From Callorhinchus milii (lineage: Eukaryota): a stretch of 64,000 bases of DNA. Below the pieces are notes generated by a model that made no database searches, was not told the origin of the DNA, and saw only the letters and a list, made by a program, of their open reading frames with translations. Made by a program: the position numbers and the translations under genes. The stretch is taken from NCBI RefSeq assembly GCF_018977255.1, contig NW_024704742.1, positions 131,814,001 to 131,878,000 on the forward strand, written 5' to 3'. Position 1 is the first letter of the stretch; each line of letters opens with the position of its first letter. Positions 11,040 through 44,959 of the stretch are shown in pieces.

Positions 11040-11615
11040 TACAACAACAACAACAAGATTCCATTTATTGAGCGCCTTTCACGTCGGGAGGGAGGACAGT
11101 TGGGTCAGGACCCGAGCAAGGGGGAAATGGTCAGGGTGAGGGGAGGGAAGGGAGGGAGCGAGGAGGGGGTAGAGAGTCGAGAGGGGAGCTGAAGGCACAG
11201 TCAAAGAGAAGAGAAGAACAACTTGCATTAATATAGTGCCCTTCATGTGGGGTAGCGTCCCAGAACGCTTGACAGTGGTGGAGTCTGACCCTGAGCCAGG
11301 GAGAGAGGTAGAGGGAACATGACCCGTAAGCATGATCAAAACGGAAAGTGGGGAGGGAGGGGGCAAGATTGAGAGAGAGAGAGAATTTCAGAGCTTCGGG
11401 GCATGGCGGCTGAAAGCACGGCCTTCGAATGTGGAGCGGAGGGGGCGAGGGATAAACAGGAGGCCAGAGCTGGCCGAGTGGAGACAGTGGGTGATGGAGT
11501 GGGTGGTAAACAAATCGGATAGGTAGTGAGGTGCAAGGGCATGAAGGGATTTGAAATGGAATGAAAGGATCTTGAAGTCGATCCGTTCGGTAAATGGGAG
11601 CCAGTACAGCACAGA
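11040..11615 (-). mobile_element. Two adjacent L2 3' ends
   Basis: Young tail at 11040-11200 (same subfamily as 33189 and 55685), followed by an older piece reading WLPFTERIDFKI...APHYLSDL...FSRHAPKL. Confidence 0.85.
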
Positions 11616-11985
11616 AAGGACTCCCATGCAGTGCTGGGGGAGTACTGCAATGTCAGAGGTACCGTATCTCAAATGAAACATTAAACTAAGAGCTCATTTG
11701 CCTGTTTGAGTGGACTTTGAAGATCACATGGCACTACTCAAAAAGAGGAGAAAGTTTCGCCCTGTGTCCTGGTCAACAAATTACCAGATAAAATTGATTG
11801 TTCAGTTTATGTCATTTTTTTTTGTGGGGGGGAACATTACTATATGCAGTACTGTCTGTCTGTGTTGTTCGCCCACAAAATGCACGGTCACTACACTTTG
11901 CAGCATAAATCGTGTGAAGCAGTTTGAGACATTTGGACAACATGGTAAGGCGTCTACATCAAATGCAAGGATTATTAAAGATTAT
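11615..11985 (+). mobile_element. Old Deu SINE
   Basis: GCAGTGCTGGGGGAGTACTGCAATGTCAGAGGTACC...ATGGCACTA...TGTCCTGGTCAA...tail. Confidence 0.75.
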
Positions 11986-13339: not shown

Positions 13340-14557
13340 CGTTTACTTTATCTCTTCAAACGGTTTCTCCTCCTGCCCCCGCCCGGTCACCTGTGGTGTA
13401 CCCAGTGCTCCATCCTTGGCCTCCTCCTCTTCCTCATCTATATGCTCCCTCTTGGCGATGTCATTCGCAGAGATGGGGTAAACTTCCACATTTATGCGAA
13501 TGACGTACAAATCTACTTCTCCTCCTCCAGCTGCGATTCTAGATGTTCTCTCAGCTTGTCTGGCATACATCAGAACCTAGGTGAGTGAAAATTTCTTGCA
13601 ACTAATGTTGACAAGGCGGAAGCCATACTCAATGGCTCCCGTCAATGTCTTCTATCCTGTGGCTCTGACCTCCTCAACCTCCCTGTCCCTTGTGCTATCC
13701 GTTCAACCATCAGTGGCCACAATTTCAATCATTACACCCCGAAATTCTGAAAAACTCTTCCTCTATCCCTCTGCCTTGCCCCTTCCTTCCCCTTTTTTTG
13801 TCCAAAGCCCATTCTCAATTGTCCTCCGCACTGTGCAAATACTAGACCTGAAATTCCACTCAAACTGAGCCTACAGGACCATTTTGTCTTACAGTTTCAG
13901 ATTGCAAACAATTGTTATTCAATTGTGAATGGTGATGACCCAGTCTTACATCTCACGTCAAGGCTCAATTACGGGAACTCCCTCCTCATCGGTCTTCCCA
14001 ACTCTTCCCTTCACGAGCTGCAGATCATCCAAAACTCTGCAGCTCATGTATTCTCATGCACCAGGCTCCGTGACCCCATCACTCCCACCCTCCCCCGACT
14101 CCACTGGCTCCCCATCCCCCAGAGGATCGGGTTCAAGATTCTCATCCTCACCTTTAAGGCCATCCATGGCCTTGCCTCCTCCTACCTCTCTGACCTGCTG
14201 ACTCCCTACCAAGCTGTCCGCTCCCTCCGTTCAGCGGGCTCCAGCCGCTCCATGTCTCCTGCCCAACCCGCCCTACCATCGGTGCCCGGGCTTTCAGCCT
14301 GTCACACACTCTGGAACTCCATCCCATGGTCCCTTTTCGCCTCGCTTCCTCCCTTGCCTCCTTCAAGGCCGGTCTCAAGACCCTTCTCGTCGACTGTGCC
14401 TTTAGTCTCCCTCCCACCTCTCCGCCTTCCCTCATTCCTACACCACCCCTCCCCCATTCTTGGGCCCCGACACCTGACTGTTCATCACTTTGGGATGTTC
14501 TCCCGACATGAAAGGCGCTCTATAAATGCAATTTTGCAGTTGTTGTTGTTGTTGTTT
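13340..14557 (+). mobile_element. L2 LINE RT fragments and 3' end (interrupted ~13690-13950)
   Basis: Degenerate GVPQ and YADD-like region at 13390-13520; SRLNYGNSLL...IIQNSAA...RLHWLPIPQRIGFKIL; (TTG)n tail. Confidence 0.9.
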
Positions 14558-15777
14558 TTGTTAGAGGAATGAGCTATGAGCAATGATTAGACAAGCTACG
14601 GCTCTTCAGTCTTGAAAACAAAAGCTTTCAGAGTGGAAGTTATAGAGATGTATAAAATGTAAATGGATGTAAATGGGATTGAAAAAGTAAACCCAGAACA
14701 GTAATTTAGGGTACCCCAAGGAAGCAGAACAAGGGGACAAGGATTTAACAAGAGTTCCAAAGAGCAATTTCAGAACAGACAACAGGAAGTTTTGCTTAAC
14801 AACAACTTGCATTTATACAGCGCCCTTTATGCATGATAGCATCCCTGAGCACTTACCCAGAGGGTAATTAATGAATGGCCAGACAAGGTGGTTGATGCCA
14901 GAGAATTGGGAGTCATTTACCAAAAACAGCTTAATGCTGTGATGTGGAGATGGTAAAATCAGTATTCTGGAAGGATCAGATCAAATGGGCTGAGGGCATT
15001 CTTCATCCAAATCATTCTTGTGATGTTATGAATTGTTGAAAAAAACAATTGAACGTCAAATGAAATTCCCACCAGTTTTATGCGGAACAAAACGATCATC
15101 GATAAAGAAAAGGTGTGGGTCTCACCAATAACTTCCTCTGCCTTCCTCTTGTTAGACTTCCTGAAAGACCGAATGAGAAACTTATAATTTTCATGTGCAG
15201 TATTAAGGAAATCTGATTATTATGCTGTGGATTTTTCTGCTTTACTGGAAGAATGAGTGAACAGAATGACTTAGAATGGAAGATTCAACTGACTGATCGC
15301 TGTAATTCATAGACCTTAATTAGCTGCACAAACCATTAGGTACAATTAGACTATTATAAAACACTCGATGCTTTGTGTCAACCAAGAAATACATTTATTT
15401 GCATGACAGAGGGGTGGACTGGAGGCAGGGTGCGTTAATAAAGCATGATTTTTGATTTAAGATGTTGCCGATAGCAGTGTGGAATTAATCTCAATAGCTG
15501 TCTAATTTGTGTCGGAAAATGGTATATTTATTGTAAAATGACATTAAAGCTAAATGACTTACCTAAAGCTAAAGCACTAATGTCAGTGCCTCAAAATTCT
15601 ACTCCATATGCTATGGACCGCACAGAGAAATCTGAACGCTCCCAATGGAACACTTTCATCTCAACTCGAAACCCAGCTATGATCAGTTCCCGCTTTTGAA
15701 CGTTAAATAGAAGGGATGTAAATCATGGCGGAAGGTCAAGGTTTAGCAGGGCAAAACAAGAAAGAAATGTTTATGGA

Positions 15778-28678: not shown

Positions 28679-28984
28679 AATGGTTAGCAGAAGTCCTGCT
28701 GTGCCACCAGCTCTTTGTTAATGTTGCAATGTTGTTCAGATCCATGGACTGCCAATGGATAATCCTGAGAGATTTGAACTTGACAAAGGGGAGAAAGTCC
28801 TTGGTGAAAATTTCGAGCTGTGATGTGTTAATTAATACCGAAAGCTGTCAATGGAAGATTGGAACTCAGCTGATTCAATGTGGCATGATCGGTAGATATC
28901 TAAGCCTAAGATTGCTGGGAACACTCAGTGGGTCAGGCAGCATCTATGGAGAAAATAAAATGGGCCAACATTTCCATTTCTGCC

Positions 28985-30020
28985 TCCATTTCATCTCGGC
29001 AAATGGTTTCTCCTTCCGCCCCTGCCCGGTCACCTGCAGGGTACCCCAGGGTTCCATTCTTGGCCCTCCTCTTTTCCTTATATATATGCTTCCACTGGGC
29101 GATGTCATCTGCAAATATGGGGTAAATGATACACAAATCTACTTTGCCTCCTCCAGTACCAACTTCAGGCCTGCCGCTGTTCTATCAGCTTATCTGGCAG
29201 ACATCAGGGCCTGGATGAGTGCAAACTTCCTGCAGCTGAATGTGGACAAGACAGAAGCTATCCTCCTTGGCTCCCGTCAACTTTTTCACTCCTGTGGATC
29301 TAAACTCCTGAACCTCACTGGGCTCTCCCTCAAACTCACCGAACCAGTGCGAAACTTAGGCATCGGATTCAACCCTCAGCTGTCTTTCCTACCCCACATC
29401 TGGTCCCTGACATGGACTGCCTTCTTCCACCTCCATCACATTGCCCGCCTCCGACCGTATTTTACCCCAAATGCAGCCGAAACCCTCGTGCAAACCCTCG
29501 TCACCTCCTGCCTGGATTACTCCAATGCACTCCTCGCCAGTCTCCCCAGCTCCACTATTCAAATTATCCAGCTCATTCAGAACTCTGCCTTGCACATACT
29601 GACCCGGACCACATCTCACCAGTTCTGGCCAGACTCCACTGGATCCCCATCATTGAACGGATCGATTTCAAATCCCTTCACTCCCTGGCACCTCCCTACC
29701 TTTCCGACCTCCTCACTCCCCAATTCACCACCTGGCGCCTCCACTTGACTGGCACCGACCTCCTGCTCGTCCCTCACAGCCTCCGCCCCACCATCGGAGG
29801 TCATGCTTTCAGCCGCTATGCTCCAAAACTCTGGAACACTCTCCCTCAATCCCTCTGCCTTGGCCCCTCTCTCTCTTTTTTCAAATTCTGCCTGAAAACG
29901 TTCCACTTTGACCGTGCTTACGGCCACCTTCCCCCAGCTTGGAGTCAGGTTCCACCACTGTTAAGCACTCTGAAACGCTGCCCTGTGTGGAGGGCTCTAT
30001 ATAATTGCAAGTTGTTATTG
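28985..30020 (+). mobile_element. L2 LINE RT C-terminal half + 3' tail, defective
   Basis: [62 protein letters not shown] motif damaged by a deletion. Confidence 0.95.
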
Positions 30021-31007
30021 TCCACGTGGGATAACATCTCAGAGCACTTAAAAAAGATGTCTGATGTCAGCCAGTGCATCAGTTGAGGGTGCAGGGTATT
30101 ACACTGCATCTCAACAACAATAACTAGCATTTATATAGCACCCTTCACACGGGGTAGTGTCCCAGAGCATCTCAGTGCTGGCTGGAGAATTAAGCAGGGT
30201 TTCCATTTCTGGGTTCAGAAATTCTTTCTGGTTTTAGACTTCCATTTGTTTTCTTACCGTTTTGCATGAACCTAGGGAAGGGGGGGATTCCGATTAGGTT
30301 TGAATGGAGAATATACACCAGCATGGACTAGTTGAGTCAAATAGCCTTTTTCTGTTTTGTAAATTTAGTGCAACTCCATGTAATTTCATGAGGATGCAGA
30401 ATTGTTTTCAATTCTAAAAATCACTCCTAATTTGCAAACTTGTTTCCTGCAGATTTTTTTTGAAAACCACGGAAAACAGACGCCCAAACAAAGACTCGCA
30501 AAATAAATCAACATGCCTTGAAATGAGATGTTAAAATTAAAGACTGGTCTGCCTGTTTGTTTCCCATTGAGAAGCCTGACTTCCAAATTAAAAGATTTTG
30601 TGTGCTTAATTCTGAGCAATCTTAACTTCACGATATAATAGTGGAACAGATTGGGTGGAATTTCTAAGCCCCAGGAGAGAGGTGGGGGAGAAGATTGCCA
30701 ATAAAAAGAGAGGAGAACATTGAAACAAATATAAAAAACACAACTTATTCAGTCAGGAGAATCAGATAAGCGGTTTCCATGAGATACTGCGGTGCAGGGC
30801 TGAGGAAAAACAAAGCAAACGCAGGCCTTTCTTTCTTCCTGAGATAGTTTCATTCGGCTGCACAGGTTAATGGAAAGCGTGTCCTCAGGTGATAAGAGGG
30901 TGTCTGTGCAGGTGCTGAATGCAGAGTAGCAAGTGCTTAAAGCCCAAAGTTCCACTGCTCTTCATTGTAGTCTCTTAAACAACAGCGCCTCAGAACCAAA
31001 CCACACG

Positions 31008-33188: not shown

Positions 33189-33905
33189 CAACAACAACAA
33201 CAACAACAAGATTTCATTTATAAAGCGCCTTTCACGTCAGGAGGACGTCCCAAGGCGCTGCACAGTTGGGTCAGGACCCGAGCAGGGGGAAATGGTCAGG
33301 GTGAGGGGAGGGAAGGGAGGGAGCGAGGAGAGGGAAGAGAGTCGAGAGGGGAGCTGAAGGCTCGGTCACAGAGAAAGGTTTTGAGACCGGCCTTGAAGGA
33401 GGAGAGGGAGGAAGCGGCGAAGGCACTGGGGGATGGAGTTCCAGAGCCTGGGGCCTGAGAGACTGAAGGCCCGACCACCGATGGTAGGGCGATTGGGGCG
33501 GGGGACGTGGAGCAGACCGGAGCCGGAGGAACGGAGGGTACGGGCAGGTAGGTAGGGGGATAGTAGGTCAGAGAGGTAGGAGGGAGCAAGGCCGTGGATG
33601 GCCTTATAGGTGAGGATGAGGATCTTGAAATCAATCCTCTGGGGGATGGGGAGCCAGTGGAGGCGAGCGAGGGTAGTTGTGATGTGGTCCCGAAGCCTGG
33701 TGCGGGACAGTACACGAGCTGCAGAGTTCTGAATGACCTGCAGCTTGTGGAGGGAGGTGGCGGGAAGGCCGGCGAGGAGAGAGTTCCCATAGTCCAGCCT
33801 TGAGGTGACGAAGGCGTGGACCAGGGTTTCAGCAGCGTGAGGGGTGAGGTAGTGCCGTAGTCTGGCGATGTTCCGGAGGTGATGGAAGGCAGTGCCAGTT
33901 GTGGT
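33189..33905 (-). mobile_element. Young L2 LINE 3' fragment
   Basis: Clean ORF2 C-terminus AFHHLRNIARLR...FVTSRLDYGNSLL...LHWLPIPQRIDFKIL...PRLWNSIP; CpG-rich; (TTG)n tail. Confidence 0.95.
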
Positions 33906-35112
33906 GCGGATGTAAGGTAGAAAGGGGCAACCCCCTTTATAGCATGGTTGATTGGGTACAATGTCTCGGGAGCTAGATTGCAAGCCAAGCAAAAAAAAGG
34001 CTGATTTCCAGGTTATCGGGTCATTGTTGACGTCATCTCCTGTGTCTACTGGAAATCCTGTTATTGGGTTTCATGGATGTGGTGCACATATGCTGTGTTC
34101 ACAAAATGACATTAGTGACTCTTCCTAACACAGCAAAGTGGAAGTGACATCAGCAGCAACCTGACAATCCAAAGTGGGCCATCTGTTGTTGGGCTATAAA
34201 CAAATTATTGTCGGAAATGCCATTCTTCAGATGAGATGTTAACCCAAGGACATGTTTACGTGTTCAGGTGATCGTTTAAGATCGGTTGGCCTATTCGGAA
34301 AGTGAATAGAGGTTCTCTGAAGGCGATTGTTACCCTCCAGTTTCTGGGTCATTAATGGTACAGATTAGTTTGTCTGTTTGCCTTTATAACAATATTCGTT
34401 TTTTATTTCTAAAATAACTCTATTTGATAAAGCAGAAATGGTTTCAAGAATGGTTTATTTTATGTGAAAAATGCAATTTAAATGAAAGTTATTATTATAA
34501 TTTGAGAATTTAGGGAAAATGAAGATTTCTTTCCCTTTAAAGGATCCGAAGAGATTGAAAGGGAAAGTCTGAATAATCTGTACTCAGCCCCCTCAAAGGA
34601 TATTTATCTGCGAAATCGATAGTGTATTAGACCAAATAGTATGTCAGACTGTTACATTTTAGTAATGTTCTCAAACATAATTTATTAGGAAGAAATTTTA
34701 GCAGTGGTCGACCAATACAGATTAAATATAATCTTAAAAGATACATTGCTTTGCGAAGCGTTAGAATAGGGATCTTTGACATTGCATTGAGCTGTGATTG
34801 CAACATATCAGCTTGAGTGTGTAAAAAAATGATTGCACAAGACTGATGCCATGCAGTAAACAAGCAACAAAGAGCAAAATATAGATTGGAAACAAATGAA
34901 ATATTGAAAACCCGCAATGAATGATCATTCACTATAATGTGCCACGGTGCGCATTATGAAATTGGAACATATTTATGCTTTGAAAACATCTTTCAGACCT
35001 TTCTAAATTTTAAGTTGTAAGCAAACACCCGGTTGTGTTGCAAGTTAGTGCACATTCGCCTAACAAATAAACATTAATTTTACAGGAAATTCTGTCAAGC
35101 GATTTGATGTGC

Positions 35113-40341: not shown

Positions 40342-40529
40342 CAAATGGTATCGTTACATGGATAAATTTTGTATTCCAAGATTTCTCATGTAACTTCTAC
40401 GTATCTGCAGCAGGAATGAAGCCGTGTGATATAAGAACATAAGAACATAAGAATTAGGAGCAGGAGTAGGCCATTTGGCCCCTCGAGCCTGCCCTGCCAT
40501 TCGATAAGATCATGGCTGATTTTCAGACC

Positions 40530-43516
40530 TAACTCTAATTACCTGCCCTATTTCCATATCCCCTAATCCCTCTATTTTTCAAGAATCTATCAGTCTCAGC
40601 CTTGAAAATGTTCAAGGACTGAGCATCTACAGCCTTCTGGGGTAGTGAATTCCATAAGTTCTGAGTGAAGAAATGTTTCCTCAACTCTGTTCTAAAAGGC
40701 TGACCCTTAATTTTAAGACTGTGACCCCTGGTTATAGATTCTCCTACCAGGGGAAACAGTCCCTCTGTGTCTACTTTATCAGCCCTTTAAGAATCTTATA
40801 AGTTTCAATAAGATCCCCCTAATTCTTCTGTACTCTAGAGAATACAGCCCTAGTTTATTCAGCCTATCCTCATAGGTCAGTCCCCTCATCCCAGGAACTA
40901 ACCGAGTGAATCTACGCTGCACCCCCTCTAGGGCAAGTATGTCCTTTTTTAAATAAGGAGACCAAAACTGCACACAATACTCTAGGTGTGGTCTCACCAA
41001 AGCCCTATACAGTTGCAGCAAGACTTCCCTACTCTTATATTCTAAACCTTTCGAAATGAACGCTAACATGCCGTTCGCCTTCTTAGTTGCTTGCTGCACC
41101 TGCAAACTAACTTTTTGGGACTGGTGTACAAGGACACCCAAATCCCTTTGAATACTAACACTATCTAACTTCTTCCCTTCCAGAAAATAATCTGTTCTTT
41201 TATTCTTGCTACCAAGGTGAATAATTTCACACTTGCTAACATTGAATTCCATCTGCCACCTACTTGCCCACTCCCCGAGCCTATCTATATCTTGTTGCAA
41301 TCTTTTTGCATCATCCTGAGAGCTCACTCTGCTACCTAGTTTAGTATCATCCGCGAATTTAGACACATTACATTCAATGTCCTCGTCCAGATCATTGATG
41401 TAAATGGTAAATAGCTGAGGCCCAAGCACTGATCCTTGTGGCACTCCACTAGTTACATCCTGCCAATTCGAGAATGATCCGTTTATCACTACTCTCTGCT
41501 TTCTACCCGATAGCCATTCTTCTATCCATGTTAATATTTTCCCATTAATCCGTGGGCCTTGATCTTGAGTAACAGCCTTTTGTGTGGCACCTTGTCAAAT
41601 GCCTTCCTAAAATCCAAATATACCACATCTACTGGTTCCCCCTTATCCAACCTGCTGGATACATCCTCAAAAAATTCTAAAAGGTTAGTCAAGCATGACT
41701 TCCCTTTTGTAAAGCCATGTTGACTCTGCCTAATCTTTTTATGGTCTTCCAGGTATCCCATAACTACGTCTTTTATTAAGGACTCAAGAATTTTCCCTAC
41801 AACTGACGTCAAACTAACTGGTCTATAGTTTTCCCTATTTTCTCTCCCACCCTTCTTAAATAGTGGAGTTACGTTTGCAATCTTCCAATCAATGGGAACT
41901 TTTCCAGTATCCACAGACTTTTGGAAGATTATAGACATGCCATCCACTATCTCAGTAGCCACCTCCTTTAAAACTCTCGGATGCAGACCAGGGGATTTAT
42001 CAGTTTTAAGACCTGACAATTTACCTAGAACCATCTCTTTACTAATGTTAATCTCCCTAAGTTGCTCGCTAACATTGACTTCTTGGTCCTCTATTTTTGG
42101 TATGTTTCCAGTGTCTTCTACGGTGAAGACTGTAGAAAAATACTTGTTTAATGACTCTGCCATGTCTTTGTCCCCTATTATAATTCCTCCGGTCTCTGCC
42201 TGTAATGGACCCACATTCACCCTCGCTAGCCTTTTCCTCTTTATATATTTGTAAAAACTCTTGGAGTCTGTTTTTATGTTCTTTGCTAGTTTGCCCTCGT
42301 AATCTATTTTCTCCCTCTTGATCAATTTTTTGGTCCTCCTCTGTTGTTCCCTAAAGTTCTCCCAATCCTCGGGTTTACTACTCATCTTCGCTGTTTTATA
42401 GGCTTTTTCTTTTGATTTGATACTTTCCCTAACTGCTCTAGTTAGCCATGGCTGCACCACCTTTCCCATGGCATTCTTATTCCTCAAAGGAATATGTGCT
42501 CGTTGGGAATTTTGCACTATCTCCTTGAATGTCTGCCATTGCTGGTCTACCGTCAAATCTTTAAGTTTAGTCTCCCAGTTTATTCTGGCTAAATCCTCTC
42601 TCATACCAGCAAAGTTGGCTCGATTTAAATTGAAGACTTTTGCTTCAGACTTAACTACTTCCCTCTCTAACTTAACGCTAAATTCCATCATATTATGATC
42701 GCTTTGCCCTAGAGGAGCCTTAAGTTCCAGTTTGCTGATCAGCCCTGTTTCATTACACAAAACAAGGTCTAATATGGCTTGTTCCCTGGTCGGCTCCTCA
42801 GCATATTGATCTAGAAAATTATCTCTAATACATTCTATAAACTCCTCTTCTATGTTACCTTTCCCAATTTGGTTGTCCCAGTCTATGTGCAGGTTAAAAT
42901 CACCCACAATTAGTGTCTTTCCTTTGCTACATGCTCCACTAATCTCTTGATTTATACCTTGAGCGATACTTTGACCACTGTTTGGGGGTCTATAAACTAC
43001 TCCCACTATAGTTTTCTGCCCCTTGAAGTTACGTATCTCTACCCATACTGACTCTACATCTTGCTTTTCAGATTTAAAATCTTTCCTCTCTACTGTTTTT
43101 ATCCCATCCTTTATTAGCAGGGCCACTCCCCCTCCTCGTTTACCACATCGCCTATCTTTCCTATATACCACGTAGCCGGGAATATTCAGTTCCCATCCCT
43201 GATCACCCTGTAACCATGTCTCGGTGATGGCTACTAGATCATACCGGTTTGTCTCTATTTGTGCAACTAATTCATCTATCTTGTTACGAATGCTTCGTGC
43301 ATTCAGATATAGCGCCCTTAATTCTGACTTCCGGCTATTAACCCTATTCACCAGCACTCTATCACTGTACTTCCTTTCCCTGCTTGACACACTTTGCTCT
43401 TCTCCCTTGTTAATCTGCTCTCTTGCTTTTGTTGATCTCAAGTTTAACTGTGGTGGACTATACTTTACTATGTTTTTACCTCCCCCCCTTAGTAGTTTAA
43501 AACCCTTTCTACCTCC
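40530..43516 (-). pseudogene. CR1 ORF2 (APE endonuclease + reverse transcriptase), frameshifted
   Basis: APE motifs LYLNARS, ITETWL, YRPP, GDFN, ILDLVL, SDHN; RT motifs NYRPVSLTS, QHGF, YLDFRKAFDKVPH, GVPQGSVLGP, FADD; 1-nt deletions at ~41551, ~40817 and ~40780. Confidence 0.93.
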
Positions 43517-44421
43517 CTATTTATTCGCGTAGCCAGGACATTTGTCCCAGCCCTATTTAGGTGGAGCCCATTCCTTTGGAAAAGCTCCCATCTTCCCCAA
43601 TACTCGTGCCAGTGGCCCATGAATTGGAATTCCTGCTCTCCGCACCACTCTTTTAGCCAGGCATTCAGATCTATGATCTTCTTTTGCCTGTACCAATTAG
43701 CTCCTGGCTCAGGTAACAGTCCCGATATCATCACTTTGGAAGTTCTATTCCTTAGTTTAATTCCCAATTCCCGGAACTCGCTCCTTAACTCGTCCCTACT
43801 GGTCCTACCAATGTCATTGGTCCCTATATGTACCATTACGATTGGATCCTCTCCCTCATGCCTCAAATTTATCTCCAGCCCGGCGGTGACATCCTTCACC
43901 CTGGCCCCAGGAAGACAACAGAGTCTTCTTGTCTCCCTGCTACGGCTACAGAAAACTGTATCAGTCCTCCCGACTGTCTCATCCCCAATAAGAATTACAT
44001 TTTTAACCTCCTGCACAGGGGTGTTGGGGTCAGTTTGCCCGTCTTCCTCGCAGATTTCCTTGTCCACACAGGTTGCCAATATTTCATACCTGTCAGATAA
44101 GGCTAAAGTCTGGGATTCTTCAGCCCCTCTCTTTCGGGAACGCTTGCCTGCCCACCTTACTGTCACCCAGTCATGTCTGTCGCTGCTACATTCTTCTTCC
44201 TTGGGACTCAGGGGAGTGTCCGGCTCCAGGATAAAGCTGTCCAGGAAGTTTTCTCCATCCCTAATGCTGCACAGCGTCTCCACCTGAGACTCCAGCTCAG
44301 CTACTCTCAGCTGGAGCTCTCTGATTTCCAGACACTTGCGGCAGACGAAGTCGCCCGGACTTAAGGCGCCCTCCATTGACTCCCACATGTGACAGACCTC
44401 GCAGTTTACCTGCCACACCAT
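43489..44421 (-). CDS. CR1 ORF1p: Zn-finger/leucine zipper + SGNH (esterase)-fold domain, 310 aa from first ATG
   Basis: ATG at 44421 in AAGATGG context; CEVC...CRKC, heptad LQLRVAELESQVETL, SGNH blocks VILIGDET / CCLPGA / VHIGTNDI / RNGLHLN. Confidence 0.9.
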   Translation of the reverse strand: MVWQVNCEVCHMWESMEGALSPGDFVCRKCLEIRELQLRVAELESQVETLCSIRDGENFLDSFILEPDTPLSPKEEECSSDRHDWVTVRWAGKRSRKRGAEESQTLALSDRYEILATCVDKEICEEDGQTDPNTPVQEVKNVILIGDETVGRTDTVFCSRSRETRRLCCLPGARVKDVTAGLEINLRHEGEDPIVMVHIGTNDIGRTSRDELRSEFRELGIKLRNRTSKVMISGLLPEPGANWYRQKKIIDLNAWLKEWCGEQEFQFMGHWHEYWGRWELFQRNGLHLNRAGTNVLATRINREVERVLNY

Positions 44422-44959
44422 CTTCACAAACTTTATATAGATACAAAGATATATAGCCTGCCCCCACTTCCCCCTCTGCACCTAATTCCCACTCTCACCA
44501 AAGTCCCTCACACTCTCGCCTCACTCTGGACGTAGCTCGCTCTCGCAGCTATCTCCTATTTATACTTTCTGGGTGCAACCCGTTTCTGATTTGCTCAGCA
44601 GTGATTTGGAATTAATGCCTAATCAAGTGATTAATCAATGAGTTAATTTAATCAATAAGTTATTTGTTATTGGCTAGGCTTAATTGGCTATAGCTGCTCC
44701 CTGTAAAGTTACCCCACATGACCAATGTACCAAAGGTATCAGCAATTTTAAATAACAGAAGACTTAAAACAACTACAACAAGACTTGAATAACAACAACA
44801 ACAAATTGGGTTATGTACTCACGATAGCAGTTTTCACGACACTCACAGGAGCAATTCCCACTCTCACTAAATTCCCTCACACTCTGGCCTCGCCTCACTC
44901 CGGACGTAGCTCACTCTGGGCTCTCGGCTCGGGACAGCAGCTTGCCAGACAGCTGAATT

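Follow-up and report, generated by a model that had tools for sequence, protein, structure and literature searches.

A CR1 element with a slippery heptamer at its ORF1-ORF2 junction

The window analyzed here, a 64,000-nucleotide (nt) stretch of the Callorhinchus milii genome (contig NW_024704742.1, positions 131,814,001 to 131,878,000), carries on its minus strand a near full-length copy of a CR1 long interspersed nuclear element (LINE; 40431..44934), in which the junction between the two open reading frames (ORFs) resembles a programmed −1 ribosomal frameshift site. The copy belongs to a young family, referred to below as lineage A, as indicated by the 97 to 100% junction identity among 40 scored sister copies. 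The architecture and the ORF1 homologues suggest the label CR1 rather than L2. ORF1 (43489..44421, 310 amino acids) combines an N-terminal Cys motif, a predicted coiled-coil region and an SGNH/GDSL esterase domain (Pfam PF13472, E = 2.4e-9), and its best named homologue is a C. milii protein with 95% identity. ORF2 is broken near 41545 in this copy. Its first piece (41531..43516), which lies in the −1 frame relative to ORF1, encodes an apurinic/apyrimidinic endonuclease-like (APE) domain and the start of the reverse transcriptase (RT) (PF03372, PF14529, and PF00078), and the second piece (40779..41594), in another frame after the break, encodes the remaining RT (PF00078, E = 6.3e-16).

ORF1 ends with the minus-strand sequence AGG GTT TTA AAC TAC TAA. 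The original prediction, made from the DNA letters, proposed that the heptamer U_UUA_AAC joins ORF1 to an AUG-less ORF2 by −1 frameshifting, and re-reading of the junction bore out most of its description. The heptamer (43495..43501, minus strand) lies in the X_XXY_YYZ phase of ORF1, and the −1 frame opens after a TAG at 43519-43517, overlaps ORF1 by 28 nt and continues to 41531. One codon past the heptamer lies the ORF1 stop (43489..43491). A G-rich box (43479..43488) is the candidate stimulator and a mutational hot spot; in this copy it consists of seven G's, beginning 6 nt past the heptamer as described, plus AGG, and it measures 5 to 17 nt in sister copies. A basic, AUG-free linker of about 57 codons (43308..43481), open in the ORF2 frame only, leads into the endonuclease. 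Two details needed correction. The first Met of ORF2 is indeed late, but it lies at codon 276 (42691) and not near codon 250. Likewise, the reading GTT TTA AAC holds for the window copy, but its Val codon is private, since GCT (Ala) occupies this position in 29 of the 30 closest copies. Contigs from four sequencing runs confirmed the private change at 43502. Contigs from two runs had one-base insertions in the G-run, and in one contig, from a run that we guess to be RNA, the G-run was 5 letters longer, which has no bearing on expression or frame.

An antisense ORF of 263 codons on the plus strand (43496-44287) spans the greater part of ORF1, with its end at the heptamer, and codon bias probably accounts for it.

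The heptamer is conserved at the DNA level

Further copies were collected with a pattern that is blind to the heptamer and is built on the D-G-x-H motif of the ORF1 esterase. This pattern gave 523 matches against 9 control matches, and among the 100 matches listed of the 523, 85 had the exact heptamer, 11 had one mismatch and 4 had neither. The copies were sorted into lineages A to H (16 of 176 remained unassigned), and lineage I was added by a later pattern. L171, an outside contig from metagenomes with 47% identity, was also included, and the nine lineage majorities referred to below are those of A to H and L171. Two lineage H copies, L103 and L104 (G000:C1:58106252 and 58114666), which lie 8 kb apart in opposite orientation and are identical over 80 compared bases, may stem from an inverted duplication at this locus.

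U_UUA_AAC was present in phase in all nine lineage majorities and also in lineage I, in every case encoding x-Leu-Asn as NNT TTA AAC. The ORF1 stop followed 0 to 1 codons past the heptamer in 9/9 lineages, with TAA, TAG, and TGA all represented. The heptamer is kept beyond the need of the protein. The last 105 codons of ORF1 include 25 degenerate columns with an invariant amino acid (columns right-anchored without gaps, so that lineage F is perhaps out of register far upstream), and three of these used a single codon, namely, one Gly column and the terminal TTA and AAC. The seven other invariant Leu columns used two to four codons each, and the two other Asn columns used both codons; pooled codon usage was 18% for TTA and 26% for AAC. 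A Leu-Asn dipeptide located 20 codons upstream was encoded by three Leu codons and two Asn codons. The wobble T before TTA AAC was retained under Ala, Gly, Asn, and His. The free synonymous loss of the heptamer that the original prediction had named as contrary evidence was not seen, the terminal TTA and AAC being single codons across lineages. Judged from the sequences, this is a real, deeply conserved recoding-type signal.

Where readable, ORF2 continues in the −1 frame, and no start codon is shared

The frame of ORF2 can be read in lineages whose G-run is short and stable (B, C, E, I, and L171). In lineages B and C, one modal spacing accounted for 88 of the 100 matches listed of 184, and the majority −1 frame was open to the endonuclease motif. 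In lineage E, the length that places ORF2 in the −1 frame was modal (28 of 63 copies), and the −1 class comprised 34 of 63 (P = 6e-4); a small-sample majority was misleading here, as another frame led with 7 copies and the −1 frame with 28. Lineage I had a modal spacing in 14 of 19 copies with the −1 frame open, and in L171, ORF2 was in the −1 frame, open and Met-free. The −1 frame was therefore open from the heptamer in B, C, E, I, and L171; lineages A and D were unreadable through their variable G-run. A family frame altered by a different G-run length, which had been put forward as grounds for abandoning the frameshift, thus applies in part to lineage A, while the other lineages favor −1. 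Between the G-box and the endonuclease motif, the 386 ORF2-frame codons of eight lineages taken together contained no stop, compared with 33 and 49 stops in the other two frames, and the linker gaps between lineages were multiples of 3.

Upstream of the heptamer, the −1 frame was shut within 1 to 5 codons in 9/9 lineages, and no near-cognate start was shared; entry into ORF2 therefore falls within a window of about 40 nt that holds the heptamer. No ORF2-frame AUG overlapped or adjoined the ORF1 stop within 10 codons of the heptamer start in any of the nine lineages, and no upstream in-frame AUG of the kind that would have spoken against a frameshift was shared. The linker lacked a Met in lineages A, F, and L171, of which A is young and recently active. 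At the site of the ATG of lineage D, 51 of 52 lineage A copies read ACA. Comparison of A with D upstream of this Met showed a frame that is open and kept, with 4 synonymous changes in 14 codons.

ORF1 ends across vertebrates and distant relatives

ORF1 proteins ending in x-Leu-Asn-stop (LN) were found in sharks, rays, frogs, a snake, lizards, turtles, and a swallow, so that conservation of the heptamer in the DNA probably reaches from sharks to birds. Residues whose codons are unable to end in U (E, K, Q, M, and W) occupied position x in 1 of 57 distinct xLN tails, compared with 73 of 342 at neighboring positions. Among distant relatives, 10 ended in Gly-Asn (GN; nine Gln-Gly-Asn and one Ser-Gly-Asn), and 12 had S, T, A, R, or Q before Lys-Asn (KN), 3 of them ending in Ser/Ala-Lys-Asn and 9 having x-Lys-Asn at an equal offset but a stop farther on. 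Pyrimidine-only residues preceded the ending in 24/57 LN but 0/22 GN/KN tails, while purine-only residues did so in 10/22 GN/KN but 1/57 LN tails. The GN and KN ends would fit G_GGA_AAC and A_AAA_AAC, as judged from protein alone, and these two heptamers are, together with U_UUA_AAC, among the most shift-prone (PMC5009743). The LN, GN, and KN classes interleaved in a quick tree for which 109 domains were trimmed of their last ~10 residues, and starred branches forced at least three changes for GN and at least two for KN. Of 112 homologous tails, 75 ended in Asn.

Among the fused homologues that were sought, the sole match was a stingray gene model (P0031), in which ORF1 runs into F-K-L and on to the endonuclease. 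Searches for DNA from other vertebrates or from the GN and KN groups gave one locus only in metagenomes, nothing in viral contigs, phages, and plasmids, and either nothing or distant bacterial SGNH proteins in prokaryote genomes. A pattern search of the own genome for GN/KN DNA returned another LN lineage only, and a protein atlas search with a QGN protein returned eukaryotic SGNH clusters only.

Pieces of CR1 ORF1 are also contained in host gene models of sharks, rays, and others (P0024, P0029, P0030, and P0073), the last of which ends in a whole esterase domain. These models may be mis-annotations or exonized copies.

A model for ORF2 expression

We consider it probable that esterase-ORF1 CR1s express ORF2 by programmed −1 frameshifting, as an ORF1-ORF2 fusion. 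The alignments show that the heptamer is conserved at the DNA level and in phase, that the −1 frame is continuous in the lineages where the frame is readable, and that no Met or other start codon is shared. These features support the frameshift as originally predicted; from them we infer the slippage itself and a stimulator other than a classic pseudoknot. In the proposed mechanism, most ribosomes would terminate at the ORF1 stop, 0 to 1 codons beyond U_UUA_AAC. A minority would slip back by one base on the heptamer, with the Leu and Asn tRNAs re-pairing on UUU and AAA, and these ribosomes would read across the G-rich box and the basic linker into ORF2. The product would be a gag-pol-like fusion of about 1,260 amino acids, with the lineage A junction ...ALN-LLRGG.... 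We lean slightly toward a broader proposal, namely, that −1 frameshifting in esterase-ORF1 CR1s, the dominant LINE of most non-mammalian vertebrates, predates the shark-tetrapod split, that deeper branches swapped among three canonical heptamers, and that a structure-free G-box and the stop provide the stimulus.

The CR1 site is best explained as a known mechanism in a new setting, working like a retroviral or coronaviral site without the downstream structure. U_UUA_AAC is the frameshift site of infectious bronchitis virus (PMC5009743). The CR1 junction has several features in common with coronavirus ORF1a/1b and retroviral gag-pol sites: the heptamer class, ORFs that overlap only briefly, the fusion of a structural with a polymerase ORF, and G-rich sequence beginning about 6 nt downstream. 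It differs from them in that no pseudoknot or stem is predicted, the host is a retrotransposon without long terminal repeats (non-LTR), and no protease is known for the fusion. Among LINEs, the Dictyostelium elements TRE5-A and TRE3-A are said to depend on −1 frameshifting to express ORF2 (PMC5911963); like CR1, they are two-ORF APE-type LINEs, but they belong to another clade and have an unrelated ORF1. The members of the vertebrate CR1 clade with an SGNH-esterase ORF1, for which the ZfL2-1 esterase structure has been described (PMC3905857), have the same esterase ORF1, APE-RT ORF2, and short 3′ repeats.

Observations that weigh against frameshifting

Several observations count against this model. 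The frame was not readable in lineages F, G, and H, which have few copies, and the majority of G changed frame between samples. An in-frame Met occurs 15 to 17 codons past the G-box in D, E, and G, and in B, C, and I, a Met lies 3 residues ahead of the catalytic-motif Asn, in the first endonuclease strand. Variable columns −38 and −37 of ORF1 likewise keep their third base, and because the lineages are related, P-values overstate their independence. As for the distant relatives, 31 of 109 homologous tails matched none of the three endings, and the GN and KN heptamers are proposed from protein only, in related rows that are not independent.

The G-run raises a further difficulty. A pattern search blind to run length recovered 57 lineage A copies with G-runs of 5 to 17 nt, and their frame classes (−1 and the two others) were 19, 21, and 17. 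The G-run is saturated both in this family and in the sister lineage D, where the classes were 14, 11, and 17 of 42. The −1 phase of the window copy is thus a one-in-three outcome and therefore cannot carry the claim. G-run length showed no trend with copy divergence (rho −0.02, 53 aligned copies), and it varied even in the youngest copies (0.2 to 0.5% divergent). For the element, a long unstable run inside a frame that it requires is costly; if frameshifting operates, it would put about two-thirds of long-run copies out of frame. The simplest reading of the variation in lineage A is slippage of the long G-run, either at or after insertion or in assembly. Runs of at least 8 G are expected to drift after insertion, as microsatellites do, and three 5-nt runs in the same copies were stable (43/43, 25/26, and 42/42). 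Of 15 interrupted G-runs, 8 fell in the −1 class, and the interrupted-run classes hint weakly at a source run of ten G's.

The model also lacks a conventional stimulator. In the window copy, 197 of 200 shuffles equaled or surpassed the fold of the 115 nt downstream of the heptamer (z = +1.83), and no notable local stem followed the heptamer in 10 sequences (z −1.2 to +2.3). No stem 1 of a stem-loop or pseudoknot was found 5 to 9 nt downstream, in searches that used no dedicated pseudoknot program, nor was any long-range partner consistent in 21 sequences. These folding results agree with the earlier inspection by eye, which had found no convincing pseudoknot.

Two specific candidates were rejected. 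One was long-range pairing between the G-box and the 3′ end: the top match in the window fell within the 3′ stem region, yet the 21 sequences did not agree on a best partner. The other was a G-quadruplex, which is not conserved because its prediction was confined to the 5 of 10 sequences with long majority G-runs; no natural stimulator of the G-quadruplex type was known as of 2016 (PMC5009743).

A GGG-containing box started 6 to 10 nt past the heptamer in 9/9 lineages, and this box and the adjacent stop may act as a pause signal. The likeliest stimulator is an unstructured G-rich box at mRNA-entry distance, either protein bound or pausing, together with the adjacent stop. In arteriviruses, protein stimulation acts on a short unstructured box at fixed spacing. 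The arterivirus box is C-rich and the CR1 box is G-rich, and this system, in which frameshifting is stimulated in trans by nsp1-beta with poly(C)-binding protein (PMC5009743), may serve as a model for CR1 by analogy only.

Alternative explanations

In termination-reinitiation, the accepted route for L1 and SART1, ribosomes would terminate at the ORF1 stop and resume in the ORF2 frame from an AUG or non-AUG codon close by, and the heptamer and G-box would form a termination/reinitiation signal. We regard this as unlikely. The constant distance of 0 to 1 codons between motif and stop and the in-frame Met found soon after the stop in D, E, and G speak for it, yet no AUG or near-cognate codon near the stop is shared, and the frame ahead of that Met is open and kept. 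The seemingly free G-run length in A and D copies would suit reinitiation, but the exact X_XXY_YYZ phase and the apparent swap among three heptamers are left unexplained by it. Precedents exist among LINEs: AUG-independent initiation is considered likely for L1 (PMC5009743), and SART1 has a stop-start overlap (PMC3708506). L1 and SART1 resemble CR1 in having a bicistronic RNA and low ORF2 output; their ORFs are separated by a spacer or meet in a stop-start overlap with an AUG, whereas those of CR1 overlap over a phased heptamer with no shared AUG.

It is still more doubtful that the motif has another cause altogether, such as a constraint on a terminal Leu-Asn in the protein, a TATA-like box, or a splice acceptor for a subgenomic ORF2 RNA. 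The Asn end of the 75 tails might be structural, but protein constraint cannot fix synonymous codons. An AG directly follows the motif in some lineages but is missing in those with TAA, TGA, or TAC. The ORF2 frame is kept from 6 to 10 nt past the motif, which is too near for a downstream transcription start, and any TATA-like character would be lost in the GN and KN variants.

Slippage of RNA polymerase II or of the element's RT on the G-run, which would produce mixed-frame RNAs and a fusion without a ribosomal slip in at least the long-run lineages, is very improbable: run length does vary in the youngest copies while 5-nt runs are stable, but the runs of B, C, and I are short and stable, long G-runs would drift after insertion anyway, and because the G-run is 3′ of the ORF1 stop, no change in its length can carry ribosomes past that stop.

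Implications of the proposed CR1 frameshifting

How LINE ORF2 is translated has been stated to be unclear (PMC3708506). The LINE cases that have been reviewed favor reinitiation, with ORF1p and ORF2p regarded as separate proteins; the non-LTR cases named in a 2016 review are HeT-A, TART, and L1 (PMC5009743), and +1 shifting or reinitiation has been suggested for Paramecium elements. In the literature as available to us, partly as excerpts, we found no paper linking CR1 to ribosomal frameshifting, and one may exist in the founding papers of 1997 to 2003 (Haas, Kajikawa, Kapitonov and Jurka) or in Repbase. The available portions of a 2026 CR1 survey (PMC13343379) mention no frameshift, overlap, or slip.

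If −1 frameshifting is correct, the CR1 enzyme would be born fused to the esterase ORF1p, like Pol to Gag, and the frameshift would set the ORF1:ORF2 ratio and provide a possible means of cis preference and of membrane targeting. Annotated CR1 ORF2 starts would be wrong, and animal genomes would hold a very old, widespread case of recoding that relies on a novel type of stimulator. As no pseudoknot was found, the CR1 stimulator is of interest in itself.

Other features of the element and the window

The 5′-most matches of sister copies extend to 44912-44934, and the 3′ repeats of the element stop at 40431. The 3′ end (40431..40520, minus strand) comprises a GC-rich stem region and short tandem repeats, with no poly(A), and D, E, and H copies have the lineage A 3′ motif as well. 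The window copy is dead in spite of an in-frame junction, because three codons are absent from the conserved K-S-P-G motif (41990-41980), judged against what we take to be its usual form, and the RT region is broken at ~41545 and ~40830.

In the 5′ untranslated region, a unit of ~60 nt occurs twice on the minus strand, near 44910-44850 and 44543-44485. The 5′-most match of sister copies lay exactly at 44543 in 11 of 29 and at 44912-44934 in 6 of 29, a distribution that points to either a pair of starts or a promoter of monomer-like type. Just beyond the CR1 3′ end, at ~40340-40030 on the minus strand, lies a tRNA-like short interspersed nuclear element with an (ATT)n tail, which is also inserted into the junction region of copies L069, L078, and L092. 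Elsewhere in the window, decayed RT-like fragments of another LINE family, which by eye are L2-like, occur at 11131-11652, 13751-14572, 28681-30086, and 33296-34070.

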